Shown piece after piece: positions 15,351 to 64,000 of a DNA stretch of 64,000 nt. A program made the position numbers and the translations under genes. The notes below the pieces were generated by a model. That model was not told where the DNA came from, ran no database searches, and saw only the letters and a list, made by a program, of their open reading frames with translations. How positions within the stretch are numbered: the first letter of the stretch is position 1; every line of letters starts with the position of its first letter. The stretch is from Squalus acanthias (Eukaryota). Location: contig CM059431.1 in assembly GCA_030390025.1 (NCBI GenBank), positions 158,784,001 through 158,848,000 on the forward strand, given 5' to 3'.

Positions 15351-15369
15351 ACTATTGTAAGACAAAAAT

Positions 15370-15755: not shown

Positions 15756-15793
<38 letters not shown>

Positions 15794-16585
15794 AGGGGCC
15801 GAGGTTATAACCTGAAATTGTTGAACTCTATTTTGAGTCCAGAAGTCTGTAAAGTGCCAAATCGAAAGATGAGGTATTGTTCCTCAAGCTTACGCTGAGC
15901 TTCCGTCGAACAATGCAAGAGGCTGAGGACGGTGAGGTCTGAGTGGATGTGGAGCGGTGAGTTAAAGTGACAGGCGACCGGAAGCTCGGGGTCCCCCCTA
16001 CGGAATGAATGCAGGTGTTCCGCAAAGCGGTCACCCAAGCTGCGTTTGGTCTCCCCAATGTAGAGGAGACCACATCCTGAGCAGCGAATACATTATGCTG
16101 AATTGCAAGAAGTACAAGTCAATCGCTGTTTCACATGGAAGGGGTGTTTCGGGCCCTGGACAGCTGGAAGGATGGAGGTATAAGGGCATGTGTTGCATCT
16201 CCTGCGCTTGCACGGGAAGGTGCCGGGCGAAGGGGAAGGGCAGTTGGGAGTGATAGAGGAGTGAACTAGGCTGTTGCGGAGGGATCGGTCCCTATGGAAT
16301 GCTGAAAGTGGAGGTGAGGGGAAAATGCATTTGGTGATGTCATCACGCTAGAGGTGGTGGAAATGGCGGAGGATGATCCGTTGAATGTGGAGGCTGGTGT
16401 GGTGAAAGTTGAGGACAAGGGGAACTCTGTCGTGGTTCCGGGAGGGAGAGGCAGGGATGAGGGCAGAAGTGCGGGAGATAGAACGGACATGGTCAAGCGC
16501 CGTGTCAACCAATGTAGCGGGTAATCCTCGTTGAGGAAAAAGGAAGACATGTCAGAAGCACTGGTATGGAAGGTGGCATCGTGAG
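15370..16585 (-). mobile_element. Penelope-like element 3' fragment (GIY-YIG endonuclease)
   Basis: GDRFAEHLHS...ELPVACHFNSP...EAQRKLEEQYLIFRFGTLQTSGLKIEFNNF at 15805..16038; contains (TA)n at ~15759-15790. Confidence 0.88.
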
Positions 16586-42129: not shown

Positions 42130-45100
42130 TACACCAACCCTTCATTACTCTTCGACCTTCCTAATTTCCTGTTGACTTCCCAGGTTGAAACCCTCTTAGA
42201 TAAGTCTACAGCCTTCCTCTGTGCCTGTCTTTGCATTCTCCGAACGGCCCACGGTGGCATTCGTTGCTGCCTCCTCACGAGCAGCAACCCCAAATGTATT
42301 ATCCTACTCTTTCGCCGACCTTCCCTCCCAGCCCGCACGCTGATTGCTAACCTTGCCAATCTCCTTCCCGTCCAACTCACCACTCCCAGCGCTAAACCTG
42401 TGGACACTGGCAATGCGTTAGCCATCACCGAACCTCTCCCCATTTCTCTCCAGAATGTCCATTCGCCATCGAACAAGGTCCTTGCCATCCATGAGATTAT
42501 CATGGATGATTGCATCGACATCATGGCCCTGATGGAAACGTGGCTGAGGGGTGATGACACCTTACCCTTAAATGAAGCCACCCCACCTGGCTATACCTTC
42601 CACCACTTGCCCAGCCAAGACAGCCATGGCGGCAGTGTGGCTCTTATCACCAAATCTCACCTTGGTCTGTCTCCCTACTCCTCCACCACTTCATCCTCCT
42701 TTGAGCATCACACATTATTCCACAACTCTCACCACATTTAAAATTCTCGTTCTCTATCCCCCACCCAAGTAACATTATAATTTTATCACCGAGATAGCTT
42801 CACTGATCTCTTCCCTCAGCATCTGCACCGAGCGACTTCTCATCCTCGGTGATTTCAACCTTCATCTCAATTCATGATGCTCTCTCTCCTCTGAGTTCAC
42901 TGCCCTGCAAACTCCCTTAATCTCTCCCTCCACGTAAACGCCCAAACCCATATTCAGGGCCACAACCTCGACCTTACCATCTCTCGTGGCCTCGCTACAC
43001 CCATCGTGTCAATTGCAGATAAAGCCTTCTCCTACCATTTGCTTCTGTCACTCTCCTCCCACCTCCACTTTCTCCCCAAACCCTACTACAATCTGTTTCC
43101 TCCCCTCTAAAAAAAACTCTCTCCCAACTCTCTTACAACTGCACTTATGAAATCCCAAAAAACAGCCTTTGGCCCTCCATTCACCACAACATTTCTGCAG
43201 CTACCGATCTGTTCAACCATACACTCACCAGCATCTTCGATGCCGTAGTCCCTATTAAATCAATTACACTGTCTCACCCTGGCTGTTCCAACAGGTATGG
43301 GTCTGATCTTAGCTCCCTTAAGTCCAAGAGACGCAGACTTGAACAGATATGGCGGACAACTGGTTTAGTCTTTCGTCATCACATCTGGCTGGATCACATA
43401 AAGCATTAAAGGTTCTTGCTCTCGTCTGCCAAAAATGCTCACTATTCCAGAATCATTATTGGAATGCAGAGCTAAACCCTGGCTTCTATTCTCCACGGCT
43501 AACCAAATTCTTATACCCCTATTCCCTGTCTCCTCCACTCTCACCTCAAATAACAAGAGCGTGGAGCTCATGAACTTCTTTGTTTCTAAGATTGACACCC
43601 TACTATCAGCTGCCTCTGCCACTTCTCTTCCTTCCCTTAGCCCACCAGGCCAAACTTCCCCTAAGTCTCGCCCCTACCCCACCCCTGAACTCGCATTTTT
43701 CTCCAGTTTCTCTCCGATCTCCGCTCCTGACTTCGCCGTGCTCATATGAGACCCACGTCCTGCTCCCTCGACCCTATTCCCAGCAAACTGCTGAAAACTC
43801 AACTTCCTTGTCAGGTTCCTTTCTTAGCTGACATTGTTAACGGTTCTCTCTCCTCAGGTACTGTGCCCCTCTCCTTCAAACCTGCCTTCATCACCACTCT
43901 CCTCAAAAAAACAACCCTCGACTCCTCCGTCCTTGCAATCTATCGCCCCATTTCCTACCTTCCTTCCCGCTCCAAAGTCCTTGAACATGTTGTCACCTCC
44001 CAAATCCATGCCCATCTTTCCCGGAACTCCATGTTTGAATCCCACCAATCAGGTTTCCGCCATTGCCACAGTACCGAAACGGCTCTCATCGAAGTCACAA
44101 ATGACACCGTTTGCGACTTTGACAAAGACAAAATATCCCTCCACGTCCTTCTCAACTTCTCAGCAGCCTTTGACACGTTTGACCACTCCACAGTCCTCCA
44201 GCGCCTTTCCACCGTCGTACAGCTGGGGGGTGGGGGGTGGGTGGGGCTGCACTCGTCTGGTTCCACTCTTATCTGTCGTAGCCAGAGACACAACTGGAAT
44301 GACTTCTCTTCCCGCTCCCACATGGTTACGTCTGTTGTTCCACAAAAATCTATCCTTGGCCCCCTGCTATTCCTCATCCACATGCTGCCCCTTGACGACA
44401 TCATCGGAAAACACAGCGTCAGTTCCCACATTATACGCTGACGACACCCAGCTCTACATCACCGCCACTTCTCTCGACCCCTCCACGGTCTCTAAATTGT
44501 CAGACTGCTTGTCCGACATCCAGTTCTGAATGATCAGAAATGTTCTCCAGTCAAATATTGCTAAGATATTGTTTTCATTCCCGCCACCGACTCCATCCCT
44601 CTCCTTAACATCTGCCTGAGGCCGAACCACACTCTTGGCAAACATATAGTCATTTTTGACACTGAACTGAGCTTTCTACCACCTATCTGCGGCATAACTA
44701 AGACCGCCTATTTCCACCTCTGTAACATCGCCCGTCACGGCTCTGCCTCATCTCATCTGCTGCTGGAACCCTCATCCATGCCTGTGTTACCTCTAGACTT
44801 GAATATTCCAACGCACTCCTGGCTGGCCTCCCACAATCTACCCTACGTAAACCTGACGTCATCCATATCTCGGATGCACGTGTCCTAACTCACACCAAGT
44901 CCCGTTCACCCATCACACCTGTGCTCGCTGACATACATTGGCTCCTGGTTAAGCAACGCCTCGATTTCAAAATTCTCACCCTTGTTTTCAATTCCCTCCA
45001 TGGCCTCGACCCTCCCTACCTCTAATGTCTTCCAGCAAATGCTATGGGCCCCGACAACATCCCGGCTATCGTGCTGAAGACTTGTGCTCCAGAACTAGCC

Positions 45101-46890
45101 GCGCCTCTAGCCAAGCTGTTCCAATACAGCTACAACACTGGCATCTATCCGACTGGTAAACTGCCCAGGTATGTCCTGTCCTCAAAAAGACTAACAAATC
45201 CAACTCAGCCAGTTACCGCCCGATTAGTCTGCTCTCAATCATCAGCCATGTGATTGAATGTGTCATCGATAGTGCTCTCAAGCGGCACTAACTCACAAAT
45301 AACCTGCTCACTGTTGCCCAGTTTGGGTCCACTCAGCTCCCGAACTCATCATAGCCTTGTTTCAAACATGGACAAATGAGCTGAATTCCAGAGGTGAGGT
45401 GAGAGTAACTGCCCTTGACATAAAGGCAGAATTTGACTGGGTGTGGCTTCAAGGAGCCCTAGTAAAATTGAAGTCATATGGGAATCGGGGGGGAAACGCT
45501 CCATTGCTGGAGACATATCCAGCACAAAGGAAGATGGTTCTGGTGGTTTAAGCTCAATCATCACAGCCCCAGGACATCGCTGCAGGTGTTCCTCAGGGCA
45601 GTGTCCTAGAGCCAACCATCTTCAGCTGCTTCATCAATGACCTTCCCTCCAACAAAAGGTGAGAAATGTGAATCTTCGCTGATGACTGCACAGTGTTCAG
45701 CGCCATTCACAATTCCTAATATAATTTAGCTGTCCATGCCCGCATGCAACAAGACCTGGACGAAGTTTAGGCTTGTGCTGATAATTGGCAGGTAACATTC
45801 GTTCCACAGAAGTTCCCGGCAATGACTATCTCCAACAAGCGAGAGTCTAACCATCTCCCCTTGACATTCAACATCGAATCTCCAACCATCAATACCCTGG
45901 GGGTCACCGTTGACCTGAAACTTAACTAGATCAGCCACATAAAAACTATGGCAACAAGCGCAGGTCAGAGGCTAGGTATTCTGCGGCGAGTGTATCACCT
46001 CCTGATTCCCCAACACCTTTCCATCATCTACAAATCACAAGTAAGGGGCGTGATGGAATACTCTCCATTTGCCTGGATGAGTGCAGCTCCAGCAACACTC
46101 AAGAACCTCGACAAAATCCAGGACAAAGCAGCCCGCTTGATTGGCACCACATCCACCACGTTAAACATCCACTCCCTCCGCCACCGGCGTACCGTGGCTG
46201 CAGTGTGTACCATCGAGAAGATGCACTACAGCAACTCGCCAAGGATATTTTGGCAGCACCTCCCAAACCCGCGACCTCTTCCACCTAGAAGGACAAGGAC
46301 AGCAGGCGCATGGGAACACCACCACCTCCAGGTTCCCCTTCAAGTCACACACCATACTGACTTAGAAGTATATCGCTGATCCTTCATCGTCGCTGGATCA
46401 AAATCCTGGAACTCTGTAAATAAAAGCACTATGGGAGTATCTTCACCACACAGACGGCAGCTTTCCAAGAAGGCAGGTCACCAACACCTTCTCAAGGGCA
46501 ATTAGGGATAGGTAATAAATGCTGGCCTTTCCAGCGACACCCACATCCCGTAAACGAATAAGAAGTCCCACCCCCACGCGAGATAAATGCTCTCCTATAA
46601 TTCTGCCCTCTTGAGCATCCCTGATAATAATCGCTCAAGCATTGGTGGCCGTGCCATCTGTTGCCTAGGCACTAATTTCTGGAAATCCCTCCCTAAACCT
46701 CACCGACTCTCGACTTCACTTTCCTTCTTTAAGTCGCTCCTTAAAACTTACCTCTTTGACCAAGCTTTTAGTTATCTACCCTAATTTCTCCTTACCTGGC
46801 TCGGTATCAAGTTTTTGTCTTATAATACACCTGTGAAGCGCATTTGGGACGTTTTACTCCTATCGACGCGCTATATAAATACAATTTGTT
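42130..46890 (+). mobile_element. Longest L2-clade LINE copy (endonuclease + RT + 3' end), interrupted by another LINE
   Basis: LQNVHSPSNKVLAIHEIIMDDCIDIMALMETWL, LGDFN, SLDPIPSKLLK, QSGFRHCHSTETAL, LYADDTQLY, FKSLLKTYLFDQAF. Confidence 0.93.
45037..46565 (+). mobile_element. Different CR1-group LINE (RT 3' half) nested in the L2 3' end
   Basis: GPDNIPAIVLKTCAPELAAPLAKLFQYSYNTG, ALDIKAEFDWVW, FADD, IYKSQVRGVMEYSPFAW; L2 text resumes at ~46566. Confidence 0.88.
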
Positions 46891-47101
46891 GTTGATCTCC
46901 ACAACCGAGTTCCAGATGTGCTCCCGTCGGCCGGGACTCCGCACTGAGAGTGCCCGTTTGTAAGCTTTACTCACGGTGCACGCCAAAACCAGCCTTATTC
47001 CTGAGGTAGAGAATATTCTGTAGCGAAATTTGGAGCTTGTGATTATTGATAAATTAAATGATCCTTCACTAGGTTTTACACTCTGGCGGTATAATATTAT
47101 A

Positions 47102-47107
47102 TTTATT
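47102..47107 (-). promoter_or_regulatory. Candidate polyadenylation signal of the death-fold/TM gene
   Basis: AATAAA on the minus strand ~610 nt after the predicted stop codon. Confidence 0.35.
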
Positions 47108-47718
47108 CACCGATTTTTGTTTAATATTTTGCATTTGCTGTATTTTGATATTATTTCTTGTAGTTTATGACTATGATATCGATCCACACACAAAATATTT
47201 CCAGATGTGATCCCTCTGGTCTCTATGGGCTGTGACATTGTCCGTGTGTTACTGGAGATGAGTCCTGTTTGGTGCTTCTATTTGAATATATTGACCATAT
47301 CTCTCATGGTGTCAGCAGCTGAGGAATCAGCACTGTAGCAGGTGAGGTCACTTACCACTGTTCCACTAATATTAACAGTTATGAATAATATTATCAATCA
47401 TGTAAACTTTAAACAGTGAGATGATGCACAGCATTGATTTCTGGAATATATTTAGGGGACTGACAATCTCAGAATTGGCCATTAATATACAAGTGGTAGA
47501 TTTAACTGCTGTTTTACAATCACAATTCTCCACTTGTGCGCGTGTCTCGCTGTGTGTGTTCACACACGTGCGTCCAATCAAACTCTCAGTCAGTGTCCTT
47601 TCCTTTCCCCACTGGGGAAAAATAGTTTCAGTTCCGGATAAGTAATTTCTCCAAAATATAGTTGAAGTTATATTTCGGAATTAATTTAGAACAAAGCTTG
47701 AGACCTTGTAAAACTCAA

Positions 47719-47736
47719 TTATCTGCTGTTTGATAC
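47719..47736 (-). CDS. Death-fold/TM gene, putative last coding exon (VSNSR*)
   Basis: Acceptor ttatttctttgttatactag|GTA TCA AAC AGC AGA TAA, phase 0; similarity to the 24.8 kb paralog ends at this acceptor. Confidence 0.5.
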   Translation of the reverse strand, partial: VSNSR

Positions 47737-48057
47737 CTAGTATAACAAAGAAATAAGTCACATAAGTCACAACAACAACTTGCATTTCCACAGCTTGAGT
47801 GGAGTACAAACGCCGGCATGGTCTGGTTGGGCGGAATCGCCTGTTCTTTGAGGTATCTCCTATGTAATCGTATGTAATTCACATTTCGCACTCCATACTT
47901 TTCTCGCATCGTGCTCTACTTCATCCGGGCATCTGCCTACTTCATTTTTTGTTAATTCTGCCTCCCATTTTTTACTAACTCCTAACGGTTCACATGTATT
48001 TCGTTATACCCTCTATTCCCCCCGCCAACAAAGATACTTCCTCTTGACGTTGCTTAC

Positions 48058-48083
48058 TGAACCGGCATCCTGCTGTGATTTAC
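48058..48083 (-). CDS. Death-fold/TM gene, 26-nt tail exon (GKSQQDAGS)
   Basis: taatttcag|GT AAA TCA CAG CAG GAT GCC GGT TCA|gtaagc; phase 1 to 0; read-through would end VSNVKRKYLCWRGE* at 48013. Confidence 0.6.
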
Positions 48084-48887
48084 CTGAAATTAATTTAGCA
48101 GATAATAAAAGAGTTCTCTTCCTTTTATTGGCAGGGATGCGGCGTTGGCAGTTTGCGGGGGCGTCCGACTCGAAACCAATCGATTGATGAATGTTACATT
48201 CATTTATTTCCCTTAACTCCAAGATCAAGCGGGTGCTCAAAATGAACAAGACATACCATTGAACAGCGAAAGGAAACGGTGAACGGGTTAACAAGTGAAA
48301 AGGGAATATTGTGAACTCAATTGCAATCACACTAATTTTTGTGGATATCACTACAATGAGTAATAAGGAAATAATTTTGGGAAAACAGTTTGCGATATGA
48401 ATAGAAAATAATCAGGCAGTCATCAATAATTCGGCCAATACATGACCGTAGCTGGTATAATTAAAGAACTGAACGTACATCACTATAAAACTCAGAGGGA
48501 TTTGCGGGAGTCGGGTCGGAGAAAGGCGTGAGAGTTATCTCTGTTAATAAAGACAAAACCTCATCATCAACAACTTGCATTTGTACGGCGTCTTTAACGT
48601 GGAAAATAAATATTCCAAGGCGCCTAAAGGAAGTTTTACAGATATAAGAACGCACACATCCGGGACAACGAAAATGATAAAAAGGGTTCAAAAGATTTAG
48701 ATGAAGTGCAGTCAAAAAAGTAGTTTTTTGAGCATAAGTTTAATGATTACCAGGGGACGTAGAAATGGATAATTTAGGGAGAGAATAACAAAGTGAGTAG
48801 TGTATTTCTTTTTCTCCACCAAAAATGCAACTGGTTATTTCACTATTTGTATTTCCTGCATCTTTACTGTCGGCGGTGCAATCTTAC

Positions 48888-49016
48888 CGAGATTTTTCCG
48901 GTTTTGCCAACAACACGTCAACAGAAATCCTACGGCTCCCACCAGTATTGCAACTAAGACTGCAACCGTGACGATTATCTTGCCGATTTCGTCCATTATT
49001 GCAGTATCGTCAATCT
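48888..49016 (-). CDS. Death-fold/TM gene, transmembrane exon (EIDDTAIMDEIGKIIVTVAVLVAILVGAVGFLLTCCWQNRKNL)
   Basis: ttctttaatttacag| acceptor, G|gtaaga donor, 129 nt, phase 1-1; ~21 consecutive apolar/small residues followed by CC and RK. Confidence 0.85.
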
Positions 49017-49221
49017 CTGTAAATTAAAGAATATGTTTGAGGTTTGTTTTTCAAGTATTCATTGACAGTCCAAATAGTCTCAAACAATTAGAAAAGCTGC
49101 TGTTATTTCATAACACTCAGTGAAAAAAAAACTCTAAGCGAAAGATGAACCATCCGTGAATATGTAAGAAAGTAAAGGATGGTGTGAACTTGAGAATAAA
49201 AGCATATAATGTTGCGAAGAA

Positions 49222-52200
49222 TAGCAGCTCTTCTTTAGAGCCTTTCAAACAGTGAGACGGCCATTGGCGCCTCACAGAGCAGGAATTTAGAGTTAAAGCT
49301 GCCTCTTTTCCGTAGAGTTAAGAGAAACGACCTAGTATTTGCAACATGTGGAGGTTGTTTAAAGTAAGTAGGAAGTAAAGAGTGGAAGCCCAAGGCAACG
49401 GATTCCAGACAATGGTGCTGACGACTTTGTTGGAGTCCGGAGCAGAGGAACCAATAATCTGGGGACCACAGCAAAGGGAGAGGATGGACCAGAAATAAAA
49501 GAGGGTTTCTGAAGATGACTGTAAAATTAAGACGCTCGAGACCGTAAAGGGAATTGTAGATGAGTAGGAGTCTTTCACAAATTGTTTGGGATAGCAAGTG
49601 AATGTCGGTCACCGACGAATGGGATTATGGATAAGTGGAAATGAGGGTGAACTGATGAATTGAAGCAGTCGAGCTCTGGAGATTCTATCTGGCAGTGCCC
49701 AAAAGCCGTTTAAGGAATCGAGTCTAAACCTCACAAAAGCGTATCTAAATCACGAGCAAATATTCATATGTTATCATATATCCAGAAAATTAAAATATGA
49801 TGCTTGCGGACGGTGATCTGAGAATCCATTCGAAATGTATTGCTTGGAATCACCAGATGCTGCTGATCAATTACAACTAGTCGTGACTGTCGCTTGTTAG
49901 CCTAAAGAGCTAATAAATAATGCACAGATAGTTAAAGAAAGTAACAGTAAATGCAAGCTCATTCCTTCTTTCTTGGGAAAACTAAACTGCGATACGGACC
50001 GGAGAAATTGAAATACTGTGAATGTAAATGTACTCAAAATAAATTTGATTGATATCAATACAACAATTAAAAGAACACACCATTGGGATAAAGTTATTGA
50101 TATCAAATTGAAAAAATAACTAAATCTCAAATACCACGTCTGAAACATGGCAATAGCTGGTAGGAATCATAATTGAATGTACCTGATTCTAAAATGCCTA
50201 TCGATGTAAGTAGAAAGACCTGAGAGATACTAAATGAAGAACGTCCCGGAATTAGCGGTCAGCGCGAAGCAAAGGCATTTGCTGCGGCCACAAAGTATGC
50301 TTGACACAAAGATCTCGCAATCAGGTTTTCCGAAGTGTAATTCAAATCAACGGAGCATCATTGGGAATCCCGAGTGCAAGCTGCTGTGAAGTCAACAGGC
50401 TGTCTAAGCATCCAAACAAAACGCAGAATTCTCACAGAGAGCGAACAAGGAAGTGAATAAGCTGTTGAACTTCTAACATTTCAAAATATCATTCAGCGAA
50501 CGAAACAAATATTGCGGCTCTAACATGCGGAAAATGCAAAGCAGAAATAAGGAAGAAAAATCTTTTAAAATAATTACATTTTCAGAATAATGTTCATTTT
50601 TATTTAAATTAATAAAGTTGTCTCTGCACAACATAAAAATTCGATTTTCTGGCCATCACATCGGTTTAGAATTCAATACGCTGTTGCAATCCAGTTACAC
50701 CCTTCCCTTTCAGTCAAACTTTTAGTGGGGAATTCAAGAGCGCAATTACGGTGAAAGAGCCGAAGATTACATCAGTTTTCCTGATTTGAGAGTTTTCCCT
50801 GATGACCGGCTCTGGGTGGGCACAGCGCAGCCTCTGCAATTTTATTGGAGTCAAAGGAAGGGAACATAGGACCGAGCGAACAACGGGCAACCGATGCAAT
50901 GCCGGCCGTTTTTCGGCGAGGACAGAACACAGACCGTATCTCATCCATCGCCTGTTATATGTTGCGCGCGAATAAACTTGAATTGAGCTGAATATCGGGC
51001 GTGTGTGCAACTGTCGACAAATGTCATCCGGCCATTGTGTGTCCCCGACAATTAGAATTTCATCCATCTGGACATCAACTTAAAATAAGTTTCTCGACAT
51101 AAATAATGAACTCTCTTACTATGAAAGTAAACGAGATCTTTTGCAATTAGATTTTGACATCGCCTACCTTCTAGATCATGTTTTGTCCCTGTATCTCTGT
51201 TCTGTATCTCTGACAATGTCGCTTTCAGTTTGGGTTCTGTATTCTGCAGTTGAAGAAATATGTTCCACATTGTTCTTTCTCCCCGAGCTCCCTTTTCCAG
51301 CACGATATCGAAAATGCGTTGGGATGCATTGTTTCTGCGCGGACTTTCAGCAAGTGTACTGATTTCCTAAAAACATATTGCAATCATATTGAACAAAGTA
51401 TTTTACAAAATCAACTAAGAAACGTCGGTTTTGTTTCTCCCTCTCTTTATGGGAGGAATGAATAGAAAAGCTCACAATCAGGTGACCAAAATCTATGTCA
51501 TCGCGGTAAGTTATAAGGAGCGTCTCTAAAGAGCAGAGAATGGCAGACGGCCGGAGAGGATTACAGAGTTAATTCCAGAGTTTAGGACCGAGAGAGCACA
51601 ACGCACCGCTAACAATGGTGGCGTGAAGAGAATCGGGGTTGCGCAATGGTGCAGAATTTGATGAGCACAGAGATCACGGAGGATTGTAGGGCTGGAGGAT
51701 GCTGCACAGATAGAGAGGACTAGCGTTGAGTCACCGAGGGAAGTTGAATTTTCTCAACTGATATGAAAAAATGTTAAGTGCCAAATAAAAGGGGAAAAGT
51801 CAGATTTCAGGAATATGGTTCGTGCAAAATGAAACATTATTTGTTGTTAGTAACAGCAATATTCTGGAAAGCTCACAAAGTGCTTTCAGAAACTCAAACT
51901 GCACAGATTGCAAAACAATGCGGGTGAAATTGGAATCGGCCAGTCGCATGACAGGTGCTGATAGCGAATGGTCGACTCGTGTTACACGCGTCCGTATTTC
52001 TTTACCATTGATTGCAATTAGACTTCCGTTCATTTCAAGTATCATTCATCGAAACAGTAGCACAAGCTTATCAGTCAATCCTTCATCTTCTATATGAAAC
52101 ATTTGCTTTGAATACCTGAATAGTCCTGTCTTATGAGTAACTATATTATTTGAAGTGTTTATGAAATGTGATCATTGTCCCGAAAACTGTCTCATGCCAA

Positions 52201-52340
52201 TCACCAAATTCTTAAACTGTCAACGTTTTACCTTCTGCTCGTTAACCTCTATGTTTCTTTGATTTGATTTATATAATCAACCCCCTACATTCAATTTTTA
52301 AATCTACTTTTAATTTCCTTTTCTATGCACATCCAAATAA
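49222..52340. repeat. Intragenic duplication: 49222-52340 matches 56159-60990 (the latter carries an extra CR1)
   Basis: Near-identical text at an offset of ~6.94 kb; paired ORFs 49897/56834, 50714/57651, 51822/60472. Confidence 0.95.
51168..51366 (-). CDS. Death-fold/TM gene, exon B (second half of CARD-like domain): EISTLAESPRRNNASQRIFDIVLEKGARGERTMWNIFLQLQNTEPKLKATLSEIQNRDTGTKHDLE
   Basis: atgtttttag| acceptor, G|gtaggc donor, 199 nt, phase 0-1, no stops; EKGxRxxRxMWxxF...PKLxxxLxEIQ pattern recalled from shark NLR N-termini. Confidence 0.85.
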
Positions 52341-52832
52341 TTCTTGTATGTGCTCCATTGCTTTTATTATCGTGTAATTCCTTTATATAGTATCGCAATC
52401 ATTTCCTAGTTGGTAACTTCGTATTGCTTCCCGACGGAATTATCTGATCCATTGCCTCCCAATATATCTGGACTAGTGTGTTGTTGATTTGTGCAAAATG
52501 GTTATCCTGTACATATACATTGCGTTGATTTACTGTTCTTCTGAATTCTAAGGATATCATTGCTTCATAGATATCCGTTATCCGTTTGCAGAAATTGATA
52601 CAATACTCATTCCTTCCCTGTTGTTCTGGAAACGTACCCATCTATCTCACGTCCTGGATACGTGGCAGATAGCACACTCCCTCTTCCACCCGTACATCAC
52701 TTCTATACTTTAGATATTTAAAGTCATCCATATCTCTGATACCCTCGCTAAAATGTCTCAATTTTTTCAATATATCGCTTCCTCAATTCGTGACCCACCA
52801 CTTGTGAATGAAAATGAACTCCTCATAGTTAA

Positions 52833-53654
52833 TGGCCAGGTTTTTCGATCGCAGGAATTCCGGGTGCGCAGGTCTGCAATCTAGAAGAATCTACGCCCTT
52901 ACCTTCGGGTTCCCGGGACGCACACGATTCAGATCCTGGGCCTCTCCAATCTCGATTTGCGCAGGGCCCTATTATCCCAGAGGCACAGGCAGATTACAGG
53001 GAGCATGGGATCATGTGGGCCATGGGGAGCCAATCAAAGTAGGGAAACTGCATTCATACACTTGACAGGAAGACCTTTCAAATATATGAATGGAGATCAC
53101 CCCAAAAACATAGTGGCCCAGCAATTCCTTTCGCAGGCCGCCCGCGGGTGGAGGACTGCGATCTGAAAAAATCTGTACCCGGACCGGAGGGGTCCCGGGA
53201 GGCGCAGAGTTCCGTTGCTTGGTCTCTCCAAACTTCCGGTGCGCAGGGCCCACGTATCCCAGAGGCGCAGGCGGTTCGCAGCGTCCCTGGGATCACGTAG
53301 GGATCCAATCAGAGAAGGGAATCTCCCTTCATACATTTGACAGGAAGACCTGCCAAATATATGAATGGAATTCACCCCCAAAACATAGTAAAAGCAAGCC
53401 TTAGCCCTGCTTTTACCAGGCATACGATTTATAATGGTTTTCTGCAGGCGGGGGTTCTCCAGAAAGCGGAAATATCCGTCCGCAGAGGACCTTCTCCAGG
53501 CTAGGCGTCCAATCTGTCAAGAGCATTCTTGACAGATCGGAAATTACGGATTTCAGCGCATGCGGCTTGGCATGCCTGAAACCGTCATTTCCGATGTCCC
53601 TACGGTTGTGTACACAGCGCGTACACACCCGTAAGGATCCGAATATCCGGTCCA
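52833..53654. mobile_element. Non-autonomous DNA transposon-like element in intron
   Basis: Imperfect inverted termini TGGCCAGGTTTTTCG ... CGAATATCCGGTCCA flanked by TTAA; internal partial duplication; related to 54409-55165. Confidence 0.6.
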
Positions 53655-54408
53655 TTAACGCCAATCTCCCAGCCGTGCGCTTACATTAACCATGTCTTCA
53701 TATCATAACTTCCTAGAGCATCTTCAGACAATCGCTACCTTCAACTAATCAGTTTTATTCACCATGCTTTATTAATATATGTGTTACATAACTTCAGGAA
53801 ATATTCGAAAAGAGATCAGATTGACATCATGGATGAGACTCGGAATTTTATTTTAAATAGGACATGATGGCTGTCATGACAGGAGATGCCGGTAATGTTA
53901 TGTCCCTGAGCATTGGGCAGAAGAATGAACGTGAAGGCTTAAAGTTGCGTAACCCATGGACTGGATGAATTTTGCGAGTGCTTGGTGAGACGTAGAATAA
54001 TGCAGATATTTTGAGGTTGTTAACTATAAATAATAACTGTGGCAGGGAAGTTGGTAGATCGGCAGGTAGAATCAGCCATGCAGTGAAGTTGGAAGGAGAA
54101 AATTAATGGAAGCAACGACTTGGATATGTTCAGGAGAAAGTTCTAGAAATTGGTGCCACCGGCAGTGACTCACACGAATCGTCTCGTTTAATTAAAATAC
54201 ACGTCACCTTTGCTAAAGAACGGACAGAATTTCTCGGCCGTGAGCGACAGCTTATTTTAAATATGTCAGTTAATTTATTTTCCTGAGATTAGCTATATGT
54301 GGCTATTAGATGTTCTATCTAGCTCCAGGATATCCATTGGGTATTTGCTGAGCAGGCCTGATGCTTGTGCTGCTAGTGGTATCTTATTCAAATATTCATT
54401 ACAATATT

Positions 54409-55165
54409 TGGCCCGTAATTTTCGTTAGGTGGCTGCCTGCGTGCGCATGCCTCCTATCGGGAAGAAATCTACGCCCTTACCTGAGGGCTCCCGAGGAGGA
54501 GCCATTTCCGATCCTGTGCCTGTCCACAGTAGAAATGCGCAGTGCCCACCTGATCCCAGGGACGCTTGCGAAGCTCGTGAGCCCCTGAGATAGGTGGACA
54601 GGCGAGAGAATAGAAGGGAATCTCCCTTCATACCTTTGACAGATAGACCTGTCAAAGGTATGAATGGAGATCACCCCAAAAACAAATCAAAACAATAAAT
54701 ACATTTTTAAAAAGCATCGCGTTTTTAAAATGAGTAACATTAATATTAATTTAAATTTTTTAAACAAAAATTTAATGTTTTTAAAAAAATAATTAAAGAT
54801 TTTTACGAAGCTAAAATTAAACTTACCTTATTTAGAAGTACTTTAAAATTATAAGTGAGTCAAAAAATAAATATTTTTTTACTTTTTTAAACTCTGCGCT
54901 GGGAAAAGCCGGCTTTACGGCTGCTTTTAGCAGGAGTACGATTTCTAAGTGTTTTCAAGAGCGGATGTCCTGCAGCAGCGGAAATCTCCACCCGCAGATT
55001 CCCTTCTCTGGGGCAAGCGTCCGATCTGCCAAGATGATTCTTGACAGAACGGAAATGCCGGTTTTCAGCGCATGCGCTTCGCATGCCTGAATCTGGCATT
55101 ACCGATGTCCCGACGGTTATGTACACCGAGCGTACTCACACGTTGGCATCGGAAAATACGAGCCA
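54409..55165. mobile_element. Related non-autonomous DNA transposon-like element
   Basis: Inverted termini TGGCCCGTAATTTTCG ... CGGAAAATACGAGCCA; GC-rich arms around an AT-rich centre; right arm resembles 53400-53650. Confidence 0.62.
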
Positions 55166-55910
55166 TTGTGTCTTGGCGTGTTCCTTGCAATCCTGAAATT
55201 TGGATTAATTGCTCCTTGGATAGGATGCCATTTATGTCCGATTACAGAAACAACATTCACCCAAAACCCTGCAGAAATACGGCCAAGGTAAATAGCTTAA
55301 CTGCAAGACGTTTTCCAGTGAATTATCAGTTGATTAGAAAGTCTCTTTCTGCAGATGGTTTTTGCCTGTCACTTATGCGGCACAAATGTTACTTCCTAAT
55401 TATCCAACAAAACTGGAATGTTGACCAGATCTTGTTGCATACGGGCATGTACTGTTTAGTTACGTGAGCAATTGGGAATGGAATTGAACACTGCAATCAT
55501 CAGCGGACAGCCCAAATTCTGACCGTCTGACAGAAAAAAAATTATTGATGAAGCAGCTGACGGTATTTGGGTCGTAAATTCTTCCACAATGAACTCATGG
55601 TTATAATATGAGATGCTGTTCTCTTGTTATTTAACACATTAAAAACGACAAGTTCTGTTTCCTTTGAGACGATATTAGCTGTAATCTAAGAGCACGTGAA
55701 AGGGTGGGCCGTGAGAAGGTTGTTATCATTCACCCCATGGCTATCAAGTCCTCACACCACCACACCTACCCCGCGAACATAACGTCGCCAGAAAATACAA
55801 CCGTTAAACCAGCAGAGACATGCCGTTCCAGACCGACTTGAACAATCTCCCACCAACCCGTCTCAAATTTAGGAGGACATTTAGACAATTCCAACATATA
55901 TGTAGCATAC

Positions 55911-56080
55911 CTTATGGATTGTTTCAGTAAACACGTTTGCATCTAAGAGCGATTGACTAACAGCTTCCACGAATTCTTCAATTGACGATTCTAGTCTCTG
56001 ACGGTAGCAGCCGATAATTCTTCCAAGCTGGATATCCGTGTAGCTCGCCAACATTAGTAACATTTTAGTATCTGAATTTT
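55911..56080 (-). CDS. Death-fold/TM gene, exon A (first half of CARD-like domain): ENSDTKMLLMLASYTDIQLGRIIGCYRQRLESSIEEFVEAVSQSLLDANVFTETIHK
   Basis: tttacacttttacag| acceptor, AAG|gtatgc donor, 170 nt, phase 1-0, no stops; DxQLxxxxxxYRxRLExxIEExVExVS pattern recalled from shark NLR N-termini. Confidence 0.85.
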
Positions 56081-58103
56081 CTGTAAAAGTGTAAATGGGA
56101 ACAGGTTACAAAACTATGTTTGCTTTGAAGCAATGAATAATTTGAACTAACTTTTAGAGCAGCAGCTTTTCTTTAGAGCCTTTCAAACAGTGAGACGGCC
56201 AATGGCGCCTCACACAGCAGGAATTTAGAGTTAAAGCTGCCTCCTTTTCGTAGAGTTAAGAGAAACGACCTAGATCTTGCAACATGTGGAGGTTGTTTAA
56301 AGTAAGTAGGAAGTAAAGAGTGGAAGCCCAAGGCAACGGATTCCAGCCAGTGGTGCTGACGACTTTGTTGGAGTCCGGAGCAGAGGAACCAATAATCTGG
56401 GGACCACAGCAAAGGGAGAGGATGGACCAGAAATAAAAGAGGGTTTCTGAAGAAACTGTAAAATTAAGACGCTCGAGACCGTAAAGGGAATTGTAGATGA
56501 GTAGGAGTCTTTCACAAATTGTCTGGGATAGCAAGTGAATGTCGGTCACCGACGAATGGGATTATGGATAAGTGGAAATGAGGGTGAACTGATGAATTGA
56601 AGCAGTCGAGCTCTGGAGATTCTATCTGGCAGTGCCCAAAAGTCGTTTAAGGAATCGAGTCTAAACGTCACAAAAGCGTATCTAAATCACGAGCAAATAT
56701 TCATATGTTATCATATATCCAGAAAATTAAAATATGATGGTTGCGGACGGTGATCTGAGAATCCATTCGAAATTTATTGCTTGGAATCACCAGATGCTGC
56801 TGAGCAATTAGAAATAGTCGTGACTGTCGCTTGTTAGCCTAAAGAGCTAATAAATAATGCACAGATAGTTAAAGAAAGTAACAGTAAATGCAAGCTCATT
56901 CCTTCTTTCTTGGGAAAACTAAACTGCGATACGGACCGGAGAAATTGAAATACTGTGAATCTAAATGTACTCAAAATAAATTTGATAGATATCAATACAA
57001 CAATTACAAGAACACACCATTGGGAAAAAGTTATTGATATCAAATTGAAATAATAACTAAATCTCAAATACCACATCTGAAACATGACAATAGCTGGTAG
57101 GAATCATAATTGAATGTAACTGATTCTAAAATGCCTATCGATGGAAGTAGAAATGCCTGAGAGATACTAAATAAAGAACGGCCCGGAATCAGCGGTCAGC
57201 GCGAAGCAAAGGCATTTGCTGCGGCCACAAAGTAAGCTTGACACAAAGATCTCGCAATCATGTTTTCCGAAGTGTAATTCAAATCAACGGAGCATCATTG
57301 GGAATCCCGAGTGCAAGCTGCTGTGAAGTCAACAGGCTGTCTAAGCATCCAACCAAAACGCAGAATTCTCACAGACAGCGAACAAGGAAGTGAATAAGCT
57401 GTTAAACTTCTAACATTTAAAAAAATGATTCAGCGAACGAAACAAATATTGGGGCTCTAACATGGGGAAAATGCAAAGCAGAAATAAGGAGGAAAAATCT
57501 TTTAAAATAATTACATTTTCAGAATAATGTTAATTTTTATTTAAATGAGTAAAGTTGTCTCTGCACAAATAAAAAATTAGATTTTCTGGCCATCACATTT
57601 GTTTAGAATTCAATAGCCTGTTGCAATCCAGTTACACCCTTTCCTTTCAGTCAAACTTTTAGTGGGGAATTCAAGAGCGCAATTACTGTGAAAGAGACGA
57701 AGATTACATCAGTTTCCCTGATTTGAGAGATTTCCATGATTACCGGCTCTGGTTGGGCACAGCGCAGCCTCTGCAATTTTATTGGAGTCAAAGGAAGGGA
57801 ACTTAGGACCGATCGAACAACGAGCAGCAGATGCAATACCGGCCGTTTTTCGGCGAGGACAAAACACAGGCCGTATCGCATCCATCGCCTATTATATGTT
57901 GCGCGCGAATAAACTTGAATTGAGCTGAATATCGGGCGTGTATGTAACTGTCGGCAAATGTTACCGGCCATTGTGTGTCCCCGACAATTAGAATTTCATC
58001 CTCCTGGACATTAACTTAAAATAAGTTCCTCGACATAAATAATGAACTCTCTTACTCTGAAAGTAAACGAGATCTTTTGCAAATAGATTTTGACATCGCC
58101 TAC

Positions 58104-58302
58104 CTTCTAGATCATGTTTTGTCCCTGTATCTCTGTTCTGTATCTCTGACAATGTCGCTTTCAGTTTGGGTTTTGTATTCTGCAGTTGAAGAAATATGTT
58201 CCACATTGTTCTTTCTCCCCGAGCTCCCTTTTCCAGCGCGGTATCGAAAATGCGTTGGGAAGCAGCGTTTCTGCGCTGACTTTCAGCAAGTGTACTGATT
58301 TC
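58104..58302 (-). CDS. Death-fold/TM gene, exon B' (duplicate of exon B): EISTLAESQRRNAASQRIFDTALEKGARGERTMWNIFLQLQNTKPKLKATLSEIQNRDTGTKHDLE
   Basis: atatttttttag| acceptor, G|gtaggc donor, 199 nt, intact; splices in frame to exon A. Confidence 0.8.
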
Positions 58303-58559
58303 CTAAAAAAAATATTACAATCATATTGAACACAGTATTTTACAAAATCAGCTAAGAAACGTCGGTTTTCTTTGTCCCTCTCTTTATGGGAGGAATGAAT
58401 AGAAACGCTCACAATAAGGTGACCAAAATCTATGTCAACGAGATAAGTTATAAGGAGCGTCTCGAAAGAGCAGAGAATTGCAGACGGCCGGAGAGGATTA
58501 GAGAGTTAATTCCAGAGTTTACGACCGAGGCAGCACAACGCACGGCTACCAATGGTGGC

Positions 58560-60271
58560 ATAGAACATATAGAACAGTGCAGCACAGTACAGGCCCTTCG
58601 GCCCTCGATGTTGTGCCGAGCATTGTCCGAGACCAAGATCAAGCTATCACACTCCCTATCACTCTGGTGTGCTCCATGTGCTTATCCAATAACCGCTTGA
58701 AAGTTCCTAAAGTGTCCGACTCCACTATCACAGCAGGCAGTCCATTCCACACCCCAACCACTCTCTGAGTAAAGAATCTACCTCGGACATCCCTTCTATA
58801 TCTCCCCCCATGCACCTTATAGTTATGCCCCCTTGTAACAGCTGCCTCTACCCGAGGAAATTGTCTCTGAACATCCACTCTATCTATCCCCCTCATCATC
58901 TTATAAACCTCTATTAAGTCGCCTCTCATCCTCCTCCGCTCTAAAGAGAAAAGCCCCAACTCCCTCAATCTTTCCTCATAAGACCTCCCCCCCAAACCAG
59001 GCAGCATCCTGGTAAATCTCCTTTGCACTCTTTCCAATGCTTCTACGTCCTTCCTATAGTGAGGTGACCAGAACTGCACACAATATTCCAAATGTGGTCT
59101 CACCAAGGTCCTGTACAGTTGCAGCATAACCTCACGGTTCTTAAACTCAAACCCTCTGTTAATAAACGCCAACACACCATAGGCCTTCTTTACTGCTCTA
59201 TCAACTTGAGTGGCAACCTTCAGAGATCTGTGGATATGAACCCCCAGATCCCTCTGCTCCTCCACGTTCCTCAGAACCCTGCCGTTGACCCTGTAATCCT
59301 TATTCAAATTTGCCCTACCAAAATGAATCACCTCGCACTTATCAGGGTTAAATTCCATCTGCCATTTTTCGGCCCAGCTCTGCATCCTATCAATGTCTCT
59401 TTGCAGCCTACAACTGCCCTCCACCTCATCCACTACTCCACCAATCTTGGTTTCATCAGCAAATTTACTGATCCACCCTTCAGTCCCCTCCTCCAAGTCA
59501 TTGATAAAAATCACAAACAGCAGAGGACCCAGCACCGACCCCTGTGGCACACCGCTGGTAACTGGTCTCCAGTCCGAAAATGTTCCATCCACCACCACCC
59601 TCTGCCTTCTATGAGATAGCCAGTTACTTATCCAATCGGCCAAATTTCCCTCTATCCCACAACTCCTTACTTTCTTCATGAGACGACCATGGGGAACCTT
59701 ATCAAACGCCTTACTAAAATCCATGTATACGACATCAACTGCTCTACCTTCATCTACACACTTAGTTATCTCCTCAAAGAATTCTATCAAATTTGTTAGG
59801 CAAGACTTACCCTTCACGAATCCGTGTTGACTATCCCTGATTAAGTTGCCCCTTTCCAAATGGTCATAAATCATATCCCTCAGGACTTTTCCATTATCTT
59901 ACCAACCACCGAAGTAAGACTAACCGGCCTATAATTACCAGGTTCATTTCTATTTCCTTTCTTGAAGAGAGGAACAACATTCGCCACTCTCCAGTCCTCT
60001 GGCACCATCCCCGTGGACAGTGAGGACCCAAAGATCAAAGCCAGAGGCTCTGCAATCTCCTCCCTTGCCTCCCAAAGAATCCTAGGATATATCCCATCTG
60101 GCCCAGGGGACTTATCGACCCTCAGGTTCTTCAAAATTGGTAAAACATCTTCCCTCAGAACAACTACCACCTCCAGCCTATCCACCTTTATCACACTCTC
60201 ATCCTCAAGAACATGGCCCCTCTCCTCGGTGAACACTGACGAAAAGTATTCATTCATCACCTCTCCTATCT
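58560..60271 (-). mobile_element. Young 5'-truncated CR1 LINE, near-intact RT domain
   Basis: 411-aa ORF with [47 protein letters not shown]; one frameshift at ~59880; absent from the paralogous site at ~51622. Confidence 0.97.
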
Positions 60272-60990
60272 CGTGAAGAGAATCGGAGTTGTGCAATGGT
60301 TCAGAATTTGATGAGCACAGAGATCACGGAGGATTGTAGGGCTGGAGGATGTTGCAGAGATAGAGAGGACTAGCGTTGAGTCACCGAGGGAAGCTGAATT
60401 TTCTCAACTGATATGAAAAAATGTTAAGTGCCAAATAAAAGGGGAAAAGTCAGATTTCAGGAATATGCTTCGTGCAAACTGAAGCATTATTTGTTCTTCG
60501 TAACAGCAATGTTCTGGAAAGCGCACAACGTGCTTTTAGAAACTCAAACTGCACAGATTATAAAACAATGCGGGTGAAATTGGAATCGGCCAGTCCCATG
60601 ACAGGTGCTGATAGCGAATGGGAAGCTCGTGTTACACGCGTCCGTATTTCTTTCCCATTGATTGCAATTAGAATTCCGTTCATTTCAAATATCATTCATC
60701 GAAACAGCAGCACAAGCTTATCAGTCAATCCTTCATCTTCTATATGAACCATTTGCTTTGAATACCTGAATAGTCCTGTCTTATGAGTAATTATTTTATT
60801 AGAAGTCTTTATGAAATGTGATCATTGTCCCGAATTCTGCCTCATGGCAATTACCAAATTCTTAAACTGTCAACGTTTTACCTTCTGCTCGTTAACCACT
60901 ATGGTTCTTTGATTTGATTTATATAATCAACCCCCTACATTCAATTTGTAAATCTCCATTTCATTTCCTTTTCTATGCACATCCAAGTAA

Positions 60991-63900
60991 TTGGCTGCTC
61001 GAGGAACTCCGGCTCCGTGTTGATGAGCTGGAGTCCGAGCTTCAAACACTGCGACACATCAGTGAGGGGGAGAGTTACCTGGACTCCGTGTTTCAGGAGG
61101 TAGTCACACCAATTAGAGTAACTAATTCAGAAGTAGCCCGTGGTCAGGGACAGTAAGGTGTGACTACGAGTGAGGCAGGTACAGGGATCCAGGAGGTAGT
61201 GTTGGAGGAGACGCAGCCCTTGCTCTTGTCCGACAGGTTCGAGGCTCTTACTCCCTGTGTGGATAGGAGCGGGGACTGCAGGGAGGATGAGCAACCTGGC
61301 CACAGCACCGTGGTAAGGGGGGCCATTCAAGTGGGGGAGTAAAAAGAAATGTTGTTGTGGTAGGGGATAGTATCATTAGGGGGATAGATAGGGTTCTTTG
61401 CAGCCAAGAGCGAGAGTCCCGAACGCTGTGTTGCCTGCCCGGTGCCAGGGTTAAGGACATCTCCTCTGGGCTGGAGAGAAACTTGGAGTGGGAGGGGGAG
61501 GATCCAGTTGTCGTTGTCCATGTTGGTCCCAATGACATAGATAGGATAAGGAAAGAGGTTCTGCTGAGGGAGTTTGAGCAGCTAGGGGCCAAATTAAAAA
61601 GCAGAACCTCGAGGGTAATAATCTCTGGATTACTACCTGAGCCACGAGCAAATTTGGCTAGGTTAAATAAAATCAGGGAGTTGAATGCGTGGCTCAAAGA
61701 CTGGTGTGGGAAAAATGGGTTTGCTTCTTGGGACACTGGCACCAGTATTGGGGCAGGAGAGAGCTTTTCCGTTGGGACGGACTTCACTTGGCCAGTGCTG
61801 GGACTAGTGTCCTGGCGAATCGAATAACTAGTGCTTTGGAGAGGGCTTTAAACTAATTAGTGGGGGGGAGGTTTCAAGAGAGCAAAAAATAAAAATGACA
61901 ACAGAGAGGGTCATAGACATAGGTAGCAGTAGGGGAATCACAAATCAGAGCGTGGCAGGAAGGGACAGAGTGTGTGGAGTAAAAGGTAAAGTGGTAAAAA
62001 GTGAAAAAGCAGGAATTAAGTGCCACAAAGCATATTTGAAAGTTCTCTATCTGAATGCACGTAGCATTCGTAACAAAATAGACGAGTTAATAGCATAAAT
62101 AACTATACATGGTTATGATATTGTGACCATTACAGAAACATGGCTGCAGGGTGACAATGCCTGGGAATTAAACATACCAGGTTATTTAACGATCAGGAAG
62201 GACAGGCAGGAAGGAAGGGGAGGTGGGGTGGCTATGTTAATAAAGGAAGGAATCACTGTAATACAGAGTAATGATATTGGGTCAAAAAATCATGATAATG
62301 AAACAGTTTGGGTGGAGCTAAGGAATAATAAGGGAAAAAAAACACTAGTGAGCGTAGTCTATAGGCCTCCGAACAGTTGCAACTCTGTTGGACGTAGTAT
62401 CAATCAGGAAATGGTTGAGGCATGTAATAAGGGAATATCTATAATTATGGGGGATTTTAAATATCATATTAATTGGACAAATCAAATGGGGCAGCGCTGC
62501 CTTGAGGATGAGTTCATTGAGTGTATTAGGGATGGGTTTCTTGAGCAGTATGTAACTGAACCGACCAGGGGGCAAGCAACCTTAGATCTGGTCCTGTGTA
62601 ACGAGACAGGATTAATTAAAAATGTCCTAGTAAAGGATCCCCTTGGAATGAGTGACCATAACATGGTTGAATTCCATATTCAATTAGAGGGTGAGAAGGT
62701 TGGATCTCAAACAAGCGTGCTAAGCTTGAATAAAGGAGACTATGAAGGTATGCGAGCGGAATTGAGTAGAGTGGATTGGGAAAATAGATTAAAGGGTAAG
62801 ACGACACATGATCAGTGGTGTACATTCAAGGAGTTATTTTACAACTTCCAGAAAATATATATTCCACTGAAAAGAAAAGGGTGTAAAAGAAAGGACAGTC
62901 ATCCGTTGCTAAGTAAAGAAATTAAGGATTGTATGCGACTAAAAACAAGGGCATATAAGTAGCGAAATCTAGTGGGAGGACAGAGGATTGGGAAATCTTT
63001 AAAAGGCAGCAAAAAATAACAAAAACATTGATTAAGAAAGGGAAGATAGATTATGAAAGTAAATTAGCAAAAAATATAAAAACAGATAGTAAGAGTTTTT
63101 ATAGTTATATAAAAAGAAAAAGGGTGGCTAAAGTAAATGTTGGTCCCTTAGAGGATGAGACCGGGAAATTAATGGTGGGAAATATGGAGATGGCAAAAAC
63201 ACTGAATGAATATTTTGTATCAGTCTTTACAGTCGAGGACATTAAGAATACCCCAACACTGGACAAACAGGGGGCTATAGGGGGAGAGGAGCTAAACACG
63301 ATCAAAATCACTAAGGAAGTGGTACTCGGTAAAATAATGGGACTCAAGGCGGATAAATCACCTGGACCTGATGGCTTACATCCTAGAGTCTTCAAGGAAG
63401 TGGCGGTAGGGATTGTAGATGCATTGGTAATAATTTTTCAAAACTCCCTGGATTCCGCTAAGGTCCCGGCAGACTGGAAAACTGCTAATGTAACACCCTT
63501 ATTTAAAAAGGGAAGTAGACAGAAGGCTGGTAACTATAGACCGGTTAGCCTAACATCTGTGGTAGGTAACATTTTGGAGTCCATTATTAAGGAAACAGTA
63601 ACAGGACATTTGGATAATCATAATTTAATAGGACAAAGTCAGCATGGTTTTACGAAGGGGAAGTCATGTTTGACAAATTTGCTGGAGTTCTTTGAGGAAG
63701 TAACACATAGAGTGGATAAAGGGGAACCAGTGGACGTAGTGTATTTAGACTTCCAAAAGGCATTTGACAAGGTGCCACACAAAAGATTATTGCTTAAGGT
63801 AAAAAATCACGGGATTGGGGGTAATATTCTGGCATGGATAGAGGATTGGCTATCTAACAGAAAGCAAAGAGTTGGGATAAATGGTTCATTCTCAGACTGG

Positions 63901-64000
63901 CAATCAGTAACTAGTGGTGTTCCACAGGGGTCAGTGCTGGGTCCCCAACTCTTTACAATCTATATTAACGATTTGGAGGAAGGGACCAAGTGTAACATAT
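60991..64000 (+). mobile_element. CR1 LINE (ORF1 coiled-coil/esterase-like; ORF2 endonuclease-RT), runs off the window end
   Basis: [95 protein letters not shown]; a few stops and frameshifts. Confidence 0.97.

Follow-up and report, generated by a model that had tools for sequence, protein, structure and literature searches.

A tandem array of CARD-type exons followed by a predicted transmembrane exon in Squalus acanthias, a candidate member of a multigene family of cartilaginous fishes

We analysed a 64,000-nucleotide stretch of the genome of Squalus acanthias (assembly GCA_030390025.1, contig CM059431.1, positions 158,784,001 to 158,848,000 of the forward strand), referred to here as the window, in which a first-pass annotation made from the letters alone had proposed a hidden spliced gene encoding tandem CARD-like domains and a C-terminal transmembrane (TM) helix. 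The window is part of a 159.8-Mb contig (C7) of the 3.7-Gb assembly and lies ~1 Mb from the contig end. Six exons were found on the minus strand at the proposed positions, with an AG acceptor at 6/6, a GT donor at 5/5 of the exons that splice onward, and phases that fit each other. The last of them (exon 6) closes at its own TAA, and the spliced product comprises 741 nt, i.e., 246 codons plus TAA; the proposed stop-free fragment of ~246 residues was thus confirmed with all its exons, sites and phases. The CARD-type exons are of two kinds, A and B, and sit in a tandem repeat whose last two units are numbered 8 and 9. The features of the window are as follows.

58104 to 58302, minus strand: unit-8 B exon encoding the second half of a CARD, phase 0 to 1, AG/GT, open, 66 codons
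55911 to 56080, minus strand: unit-9 A exon encoding the first half of a CARD, phase 1 to 0, AG/GT, 56 codons
51168 to 51366, minus strand: unit-9 B exon encoding the second half of a CARD, phase 0 to 1, AG/GT, 66 codons
48888 to 49016, minus strand: TM exon, hydrophobic helix followed by CC and basic residues, phase 1 to 1, AG/GT
48058 to 48083, minus strand: exon 5, 26 nt, tail KSQQDAGS, AG/GT
47719 to 47736, minus strand: putative exon 6 (VSNSR and stop), doubtful, AG acceptor, TAA stop
47102 to 47107, minus strand: AATAAA, possible poly(A) signal from a pattern scan, ~600 nt past the exon 6 stop
41113 to 49224, minus strand: 8.1-kb TM module (TM exon, exons 5 and 6, and flanks), block-duplicated according to copy alignment
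49225 to 58400, minus strand: final 1 1/3 units of the 6.9-kb tandem repeat (exons and conserved introns)
58639 to 64000, no strand assigned: long interspersed nuclear element (LINE) insertions enlarging the unit-8 A-to-B intron, with RVT_1 and endonuclease Pfam matches

The six-exon set is the 3' end of a longer array. When the window numbering was carried on into 100 kb of added upstream DNA (L009-L015; extended coordinates), nine exons of type A (170 nt each) and nine of type B (199 nt each) were found to alternate strictly on the minus strand, starting at 118411 and ending at 51168; the TM exon, exon 5 and exon 6 come after them. The unit-8 A exon lies outside the window, at extended coordinate 68797. 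All A and B exons (18/18) are open and have AG/GT sites. The tandem unit has a period of ~6.9 kb, so that, for example, window 58400-56180 recurs at 51480-49220, and unit homology ends ~840 bp upstream of the first A exon. Identity between units was 94.8% for the intron after B, 91.6% for the intron after A and 96-97% for the exons (96.5% between the unit-8 and unit-9 B exons). Because the exons sit in such a unit, the DNA between them is more than decayed transposon, and the first-pass description of it as "otherwise decayed TE DNA" is too narrow: the introns are part of the unit and are conserved between units. Furthermore, the A+B pair is phase-symmetric (1 to 1), and gain, loss or skipping of a unit therefore leaves the frame intact; in its behaviour, the array appears to resemble a young copy-number-variable repeat. 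Conceptual splicing of all 21 exons gave a frame of 1,164 codons, interrupted by stops at 615 and 861 and closed by the one at 1164, and hence open segments of 614, 245 and 302 codons. The last segment consists of units 8 and 9, the TM exon and the tail, and its 302 codons correspond to 297 residues from the first Met. A higher-order structure was also seen within the array (51168-118411), in which identical variant exons recur ~20.8 kb (three units) apart: the A exon at 103450 equals that at 82671, the A exon at 96510 equals that at 75734, and the B exon at 98732 equals that at 77955.

Exon A was searched with phmmer (full HMMER scan) against 1.84 billion representative proteins. Seven proteins were detected at E<=0.001, six of them from cartilaginous fishes (E 9.7e-39 to 4.8e-04, the lowest value for P0001). 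The seventh, P0004, is a low-complexity repeat protein and was judged spurious. The six relatives (P0001, P0002, P0003, P0005, P0006 and P0007) come from Scyliorhinus torazame (two proteins), Mustelus asterias, Cetorhinus maximus, Hypanus sabinus and Hemitrygon akajei, and each holds 2-4 tandem A+B domains; the UniRef name of P0001 is "CARD domain-containing protein". With matches to shark proteins at E 9.7e-39, 1.7e-28 and 2.4e-12, the exons are, by sequence comparison, far beyond chance. The A+B similarity (phmmer and an alignment of the family, A1) places the window in a tandem-CARD family of chondrichthyans, and in A1 the window exons A and B were 57% and 45% identical, respectively, to the second domain of P0003. 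A word-indexed protein search with exon B (longer proteins), P0003 and residues 60-500 of P0002 returned nothing beyond the query itself.

The proposed death-fold nature of A+B was borne out in the relatives. P0005 matched the Pfam CARD family (PF00619) with 30.3 bits against a cut-off of 23.9, and P0006 (23.4) and P0003 (22.9) fell just under it. The window exons taken one by one gave only noise and no CARD match in Pfam, as each exon encodes half a domain. Nothing significant was found in a PDB-chain sequence search with P0005 and the A1 profile, in which the top CARD row was caspase-1 (E 0.47). An AlphaFold2 model was built for P0003 using A1, which takes in the window exons, and its block-mean predicted local distance difference test (pLDDT) score was 75-96 across residues 150-260. 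Foldseek placed the RIG-I 2CARD and the APAF-1 and NOD1 CARDs on top for the two-domain model, all with E-values >0.1. VIA-align matched the model to the CARDs of ARC, NLRC4, NOD1, ASC, NLRP1 and APAF-1 with Z 10-12.1 and a root-mean-square deviation of 1.3-2.5 Å over 80-98 residues; 38/39 top rows were CARD-containing natural proteins, and the next unrelated row had Z 5.1. The CARD-only list, the full-domain coverage and the Pfam match together make the CARD assignment firm for the family domain. For the window's own A+B domain, the assignment is extended from the 57% (A) and 45% (B) identity to the modelled P0003 domain, and we call it a probable CARD.

The first-pass annotation had also taken A+B for the N-terminal domain type of the expanded NLRs of cartilaginous fishes. 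This is corroborated by P0002 (XP_078087540.1, "NACHT, LRR and PYD domains-containing protein 3-like", from Mustelus asterias), in which three A+B CARDs precede NACHT, NOD2_WH, NLRC4_HD2 and LRR domains, and the NLR motif given in the first-pass annotation is carried by the ray proteins P0005 and P0006. P0002 starts with a hydrophobic leader and a short segment with Cys and N-glycosylation sites, followed by a TM helix ahead of the CARDs. If the model is real, P0002 would be a transmembrane NLR; alternatively, it could be a chimeric gene model. At the window locus itself, tblastn with the NACHT-LRR part of P0002 found no NACHT or LRR at E<0.01 in 164 kb around the gene or in 100 kb at a sister locus, in agreement with the first-pass annotation, and the window locus is therefore not an NLR. 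Elsewhere in the genome, a NACHT profile gave 481 first-look candidates, and 95/95 of those scored exceeded the Pfam cut-off. The scored NACHT frames were open over 326-680 codons, one with an internal TGA, and many lie on C7, C29 and small unplaced contigs. These counts point to a very large NLR expansion.

The TM exon encodes a hydrophobic stretch with a best 19-residue Kyte-Doolittle mean of 2.99, followed by CCW and basic residues. In the window array, it lies 2.15 kb past the last B exon. The tail past the helix would be 14-20 residues long, depending on the usage of exons 5 and 6, so that, given the predicted B-TM-exon 5 splicing, the product has the single TM segment within ~30 residues of the C-terminus that is typical of tail-anchored proteins. 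The AG/GT sites of the TM exon are kept in 7/7 aligned copies. Exon 5 is identical in 3/7 copies and ends in TAA in the other 4/7, giving the tail GKSQQDAG and a stop. Exon 6 was found in 6/7 copies, is not conserved in 1/7, and is embedded in a segment (44434-47762) with an 80% match elsewhere; it is the least secure of the six exons and is doubtful. No A, B or TM exon and no match to the relatives (the NACHT-LRR part of P0002 included) was found in 20 kb beyond the window start, and no A or B exon was found within 69 kb downstream of the TM exon, which makes the TM exon terminal at the window locus.

The TM exon belongs to a module (49224-41113) that is 92-96% identical to two copies without an adjoining A or B exon. 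Homology between the modules sets in 208 bp ahead of the TM exon, at the very point at which the homology of the array units stops. A further ~10 kb downstream of the module (window 6190-16094) is colinear between both module copies that flank the array: window 41113-49224 and 6190-16094 are colinear, at 90-93%, with extended 155082-163176 and 133187-141895, and the second copy is 44 kb upstream of the array. These colinear copies on both sides indicate that a large block flanks the array. The TM modules at C7:158396009 (+) and C7:158946840 (-), neither of which has an array, share 98.6% identity across 6 kb and are mutually inverted. At one paralog locus (L029), B-to-TM intron homology extends only 388 bp upstream of the TM exon, and there is no B exon within 2.4 kb.

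We then counted family copies in the whole assembly; the counts are first-look candidates, with 40 scored for each of A and B. There were 115 candidates for exon A and 114 for exon B, and 40/40 of those scored for each matched at 87-100% identity. The TM exon has 12 genome copies at 86-100% identity. Nearly all A, B and TM copies lie between 154 and 159.3 Mb of C7, towards a single end of the chromosome. In 4/12 TM exons, a B exon is located 1,987-2,152 bp upstream on the same strand, and 3.3 kb upstream of a fifth there is an array that is joined to it by a different junction. The other 7/12 have no A or B exon nearby among the matches listed. A diverged array (L032, C7:158605300-158611299, +) was also observed, in which the B exon is 74% identical at the protein level and the intron ahead of the TM module is kept; neither a TM exon nor a NACHT was found within 5.7 kb past its last B exon.

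Three small sequencing runs carrying the label of the same species were used for expression. They were taken to be RNA by guess, which fits with cover of exons only and one spliced contig: contigs of these runs cover exon B and transposon pieces and leave introns uncovered. The unit-9 B exon was covered by contigs of runs X1 and X2 at a depth of 26-50. In run X3, a 239-nt contig links 55918 to 51368 with 5 unmatched letters, and its letter count indicates an exact junction between A donor and B acceptor in a diverged paralog. This contig shows that family members are transcribed and that the A|B splice is real. The A|B join is thus present in a paralog; the TM exon and exon 5 had no cover in the three runs. 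Several copies of a short element resembling short interspersed nuclear elements (SINEs) lie in the A-to-B intron (window 52900-55100); in all three runs their contig depth was very high (up to ~1,200) and far above that of the exons.

Selection was estimated from variants between array copies. In the window array, the ratio of nonsynonymous to synonymous variants per site (pN/pS) was 0.52 for A and 0.72 for B. Distinct variants per site amounted to 0.106 (A) and 0.126 (B) in the exons versus 0.153 in the B-to-A intron. Only the cross-species relatives, at ~50% sequence identity, show that the domain has been constrained over the long term.

Taken together, we judge that the tandem-CARD family is real and undescribed, and we consider it probable, somewhat above an even chance, that the window locus represents the 3' end of a gene belonging to a multigene CARD and TM family found only in cartilaginous fishes. 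Each 6.9-kb unit encodes one divergent CARD, with exon A giving the N-terminal half and exon B the C-terminal half, and nine units are followed by the phase 1-1 exon of the hydrophobic helix and a tail of 14-20 residues. According to the model, TAA codons at exon junctions would limit the translated product to the last two CARDs and the TM helix (297 residues), the same plan as in P0003. With the helix within 20 residues of the end and no leader, membrane insertion of the protein would be post-translational and of the tail-anchored type, leaving the CARDs in the cytosol. Homotypic CARD-CARD contacts could then engage the expanded NLRs that bear the same type of CARD, and the product may act as a membrane platform, like MAVS, or as a sink, like CARD-only proteins. 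The RIG-I 2CARD serves as a preformed signalling seed, and several CARDs in cis could likewise form such a seed. A membrane-anchored, MAVS-like multi-CARD protein is therefore plausible but unproven here, and the window copy may be decaying. More speculatively, sharks and rays may possess a tail-anchored poly-CARD class with 2-9 near-identical NLR-type CARDs encoded by copy-number-variable 6.9-kb repeats, acting as pre-oligomerised hubs or sinks for NLRs, i.e., an independent MAVS-like solution with a tunable number of domains; we put this forward only tentatively.

A number of observations, in this paragraph and the next, weigh against the model of a tail-anchored CARD protein, and many of them suit a different view, in which the locus is a decaying by-product: a young macrosatellite-like amplification of NLR CARD exons beside a rearranged TM module, leaving a pseudogene or CARD-only fragments, with the B-to-TM splice unused. 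We regard this view as possible but rather unlikely. The B exons at 84869 and 71020 (extended) end in T and not in G, and joined to the next A exon each therefore creates a T|AA junction codon, an in-frame stop; these are the stops at codons 615 and 861. With T in place of G, the final exon base at the donor site is changed as well, and this may favour exon skipping. The T-ending B type occurs twice in the sister array as well, 460 kb away, and the variant is thus older than the array duplication; the presence of this type ("KTGTGTKHDLE") twice in each of the two arrays indicates that the arrays were duplicated whole, at a time when their units had already diversified. One stop, one frameshift and one lost AG acceptor were found in the sister array. 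Across both arrays, pN/pS was 0.68 for A and 1.02 for B, and in the sister array 1.9 and 1.7, so that some sets reach 1.0 or more. Variant and indel counts in exons are near the intron values, and the zero exon indels, with 1.6 expected (P = 0.19), are unremarkable. Selection on the window array is weak and its evolution almost neutral. With two in-frame junction stops, this almost neutral evolution and the decayed sister array, the clean hidden gene of the first-pass annotation could not be upheld. The 8.1-kb TM module has been duplicated as a block of its own, whose homology breaks off sharply 208 bp ahead of the TM exon; the TM exon is no better conserved (0.948) than the intron behind it (0.951), and its copies show lower amino-acid identity (83-93%) than nucleotide identity (91-96%). 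No contig covers the TM exon or exon 5 in the three runs, which proves nothing either way, and these runs likewise hold no RNA support for the B-to-TM junction. The extension past 64000, which yielded the further A and B exons of the nine units, gave no 5' end, start codon or NACHT, and tblastn with the N-termini of P0002 and P0003 was empty. As for the fold, VIA-align itself warns that helical bundles reach ~Z 13 through a common arrangement, and the model compared is that of the relative P0003, not of the window's own spliced domain. Against decay, all 18/18 exons and their splice sites are intact in the window array, pN/pS there is 0.5-0.7, and the number of variants per site is 18-31% lower in the exons than in the intron. 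In addition, 4 separate loci retain the junction of the last B exon with the TM module, an independent species has a predicted protein of two CARDs and a TM helix, and family transcripts exist. Judged on these data, the family is real and unusual; the window copy is compromised, and its key B-to-TM junction is predicted only. The multi-CARD plan with a C-terminal TM helix that the first-pass annotation had put forward is likewise a predicted one for the window copy; P0003 has this plan.

The TM exon could instead be an N-terminal anchor, as in P0002, in which case the true gene would run from TM exon to array, the module 44 kb upstream would be its 5' part, and the window TM exon would be a displaced or unused duplicate. 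In favour of this arrangement, the window TM exon aligned to the N-terminal TM helix of P0002 (BLASTP E 0.001, with TCC in common), and no alignment was obtained with the C-terminal TM helix of P0003. The phase 1-1 TM exon can also splice straight to an A exon. Furthermore, copies of the TM module occur 26-50 kb upstream of arrays on the same strand, without an adjoining A or B exon, and 4 TM-ended arrays have another such module 33-50 kb upstream. The acidic N-flank, the CC and the basic C-flank would, in our own reading of the residues, suit a type-I helix with its N-terminus outside and its C-terminus inside. However, tblastn found no P0002-like leader or ectodomain exon, and the open reading frames (ORFs) ahead of one array-less TM copy were only retroelement-like. 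In every copy, exon 5 comes after the TM exon and closes the frame, no NACHT follows the window array, and P0002 is a single automatic gene model that could be chimeric. The absence of any CARD exon within 69 kb downstream makes an N-terminal role unlikely for the window TM copy, and we consider the arrangement as a whole improbable. Chance open frames in repeat and transposon DNA have a negligible probability: the exons do lie within a tandem repeat rich in transposon insertions, but the matches in five other species down to E 1e-39, the spliced contig and the CARD fold led us to reject this explanation.

We compared the tail-anchored CARD protein proposed here with known systems. The closest in plan is P0003 (XP_078390056.1, "uncharacterized protein LOC144671995", Cetorhinus maximus), an automatic prediction with two A+B-type CARDs, a hydrophobic helix ending in CC and a short tail; it differs in having only 2 CARDs, a hydrophobic N-terminus, a tail of ~42 residues and a TM helix that is not alignable to that of the window. 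P0002 shares the three tandem CARDs of the window type and the alignable TM helix, whereas its TM helix is N-terminal to the CARDs and NACHT, WH, HD2 and LRR domains follow them, and the window array has no NACHT in the DNA searched. MAVS has a cytosolic CARD and a TM helix at its extreme C-terminus and signals via CARD filaments; it contains one CARD and a long proline-rich linker and is encoded by a single-copy gene conserved across vertebrates. The resemblance lies in the overall plan only, and MAVS complexes were among the fold rows of P0003. The window has no proline-rich linker between CARD and TM and no detected sequence similarity to MAVS, and is not a MAVS member. CARD19 (BinCARD-2), a regulator of CARD signalling with one CARD and a C-terminal TM helix, is likewise encoded by a conserved single-copy gene; it has the CARD and C-terminal TM plan in common with the window, with a single CARD and no tandem array. 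The locus thus appears MAVS/CARD19-like in plan, yet it represents a lineage-specific multigene family and is a member of neither, as far as its sequence indicates.

RIG-I and MDA5 also carry CARDs in tandem on one chain, and their 2CARD structures were top Foldseek rows, with Z 10.4-11.5 in VIA-align. In these proteins, a helicase and not a TM helix follows the CARDs, and the two CARDs are diverged, in contrast to the near-identical repeats of the window. The CARD-only proteins (ICEBERG, with Z 10.1, and COP/CARD16-18) are comparable as effector-less CARD decoys, but they are soluble single CARDs derived from caspase-1. For the genome architecture alone, a parallel is found in LPA kringle IV-2, an unrelated domain of a secreted protein. 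This two-exon domain sits in a tandem unit several kb long, with introns as similar as exons, for which reason the number of domains can vary.

Proteins of the family are labelled "uncharacterized", "hypothetical" or "CARD domain-containing" in public databases and are automatic predictions only. In the accessible parts of the literature on shark and elasmobranch NLRs and CARDs, no description of tandem-CARD and TM proteins was found. The first-pass annotation did not recognise a described gene here, which has to be qualified in that predicted family proteins already stand in databases. Even if the window copy is merely decaying, the finding flags a family that has been annotated automatically as "uncharacterized".

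Cartilaginous fishes are the oldest living lineage that combines adaptive immunity with large NLR expansions. If the model is correct, a membrane-anchored protein made of the CARD that the NLRs themselves use would be a candidate for a hub or a brake in the shark NLR system, and a connection between CARD copy number and the threshold for signalling could be tested on it. The whale-shark genome paper reports no NACHT-bearing NLRP orthologs (PMC8455134). Irrespective of function, the locus is a clear case of a protein domain inside a multi-kb tandem repeat, in which unequal crossing-over can change the number of domains.

The window also contains other repeats. The LINE pieces nested in the unit-8 A-to-B intron lie at 58639-59898 (-) and 62099-64000 (+); the former has a 419-codon reverse transcriptase (RT) frame, and the latter, which looks young, has an endonuclease frame and behind it an RT frame that extends past the window edge. 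C-rich satellites were found at 27767-32110, 3247-5717, 16808-18134, 32097-32624 and 10011-10807. They comprise 189 copies of a 23-bp unit, related units of 27, 54 and 81 bp and, separately, a 45-bp array, and they account for the high GC content and the strongly negative GC skew of their stretches. This satellite is also found after the TM module in the module's other copies.

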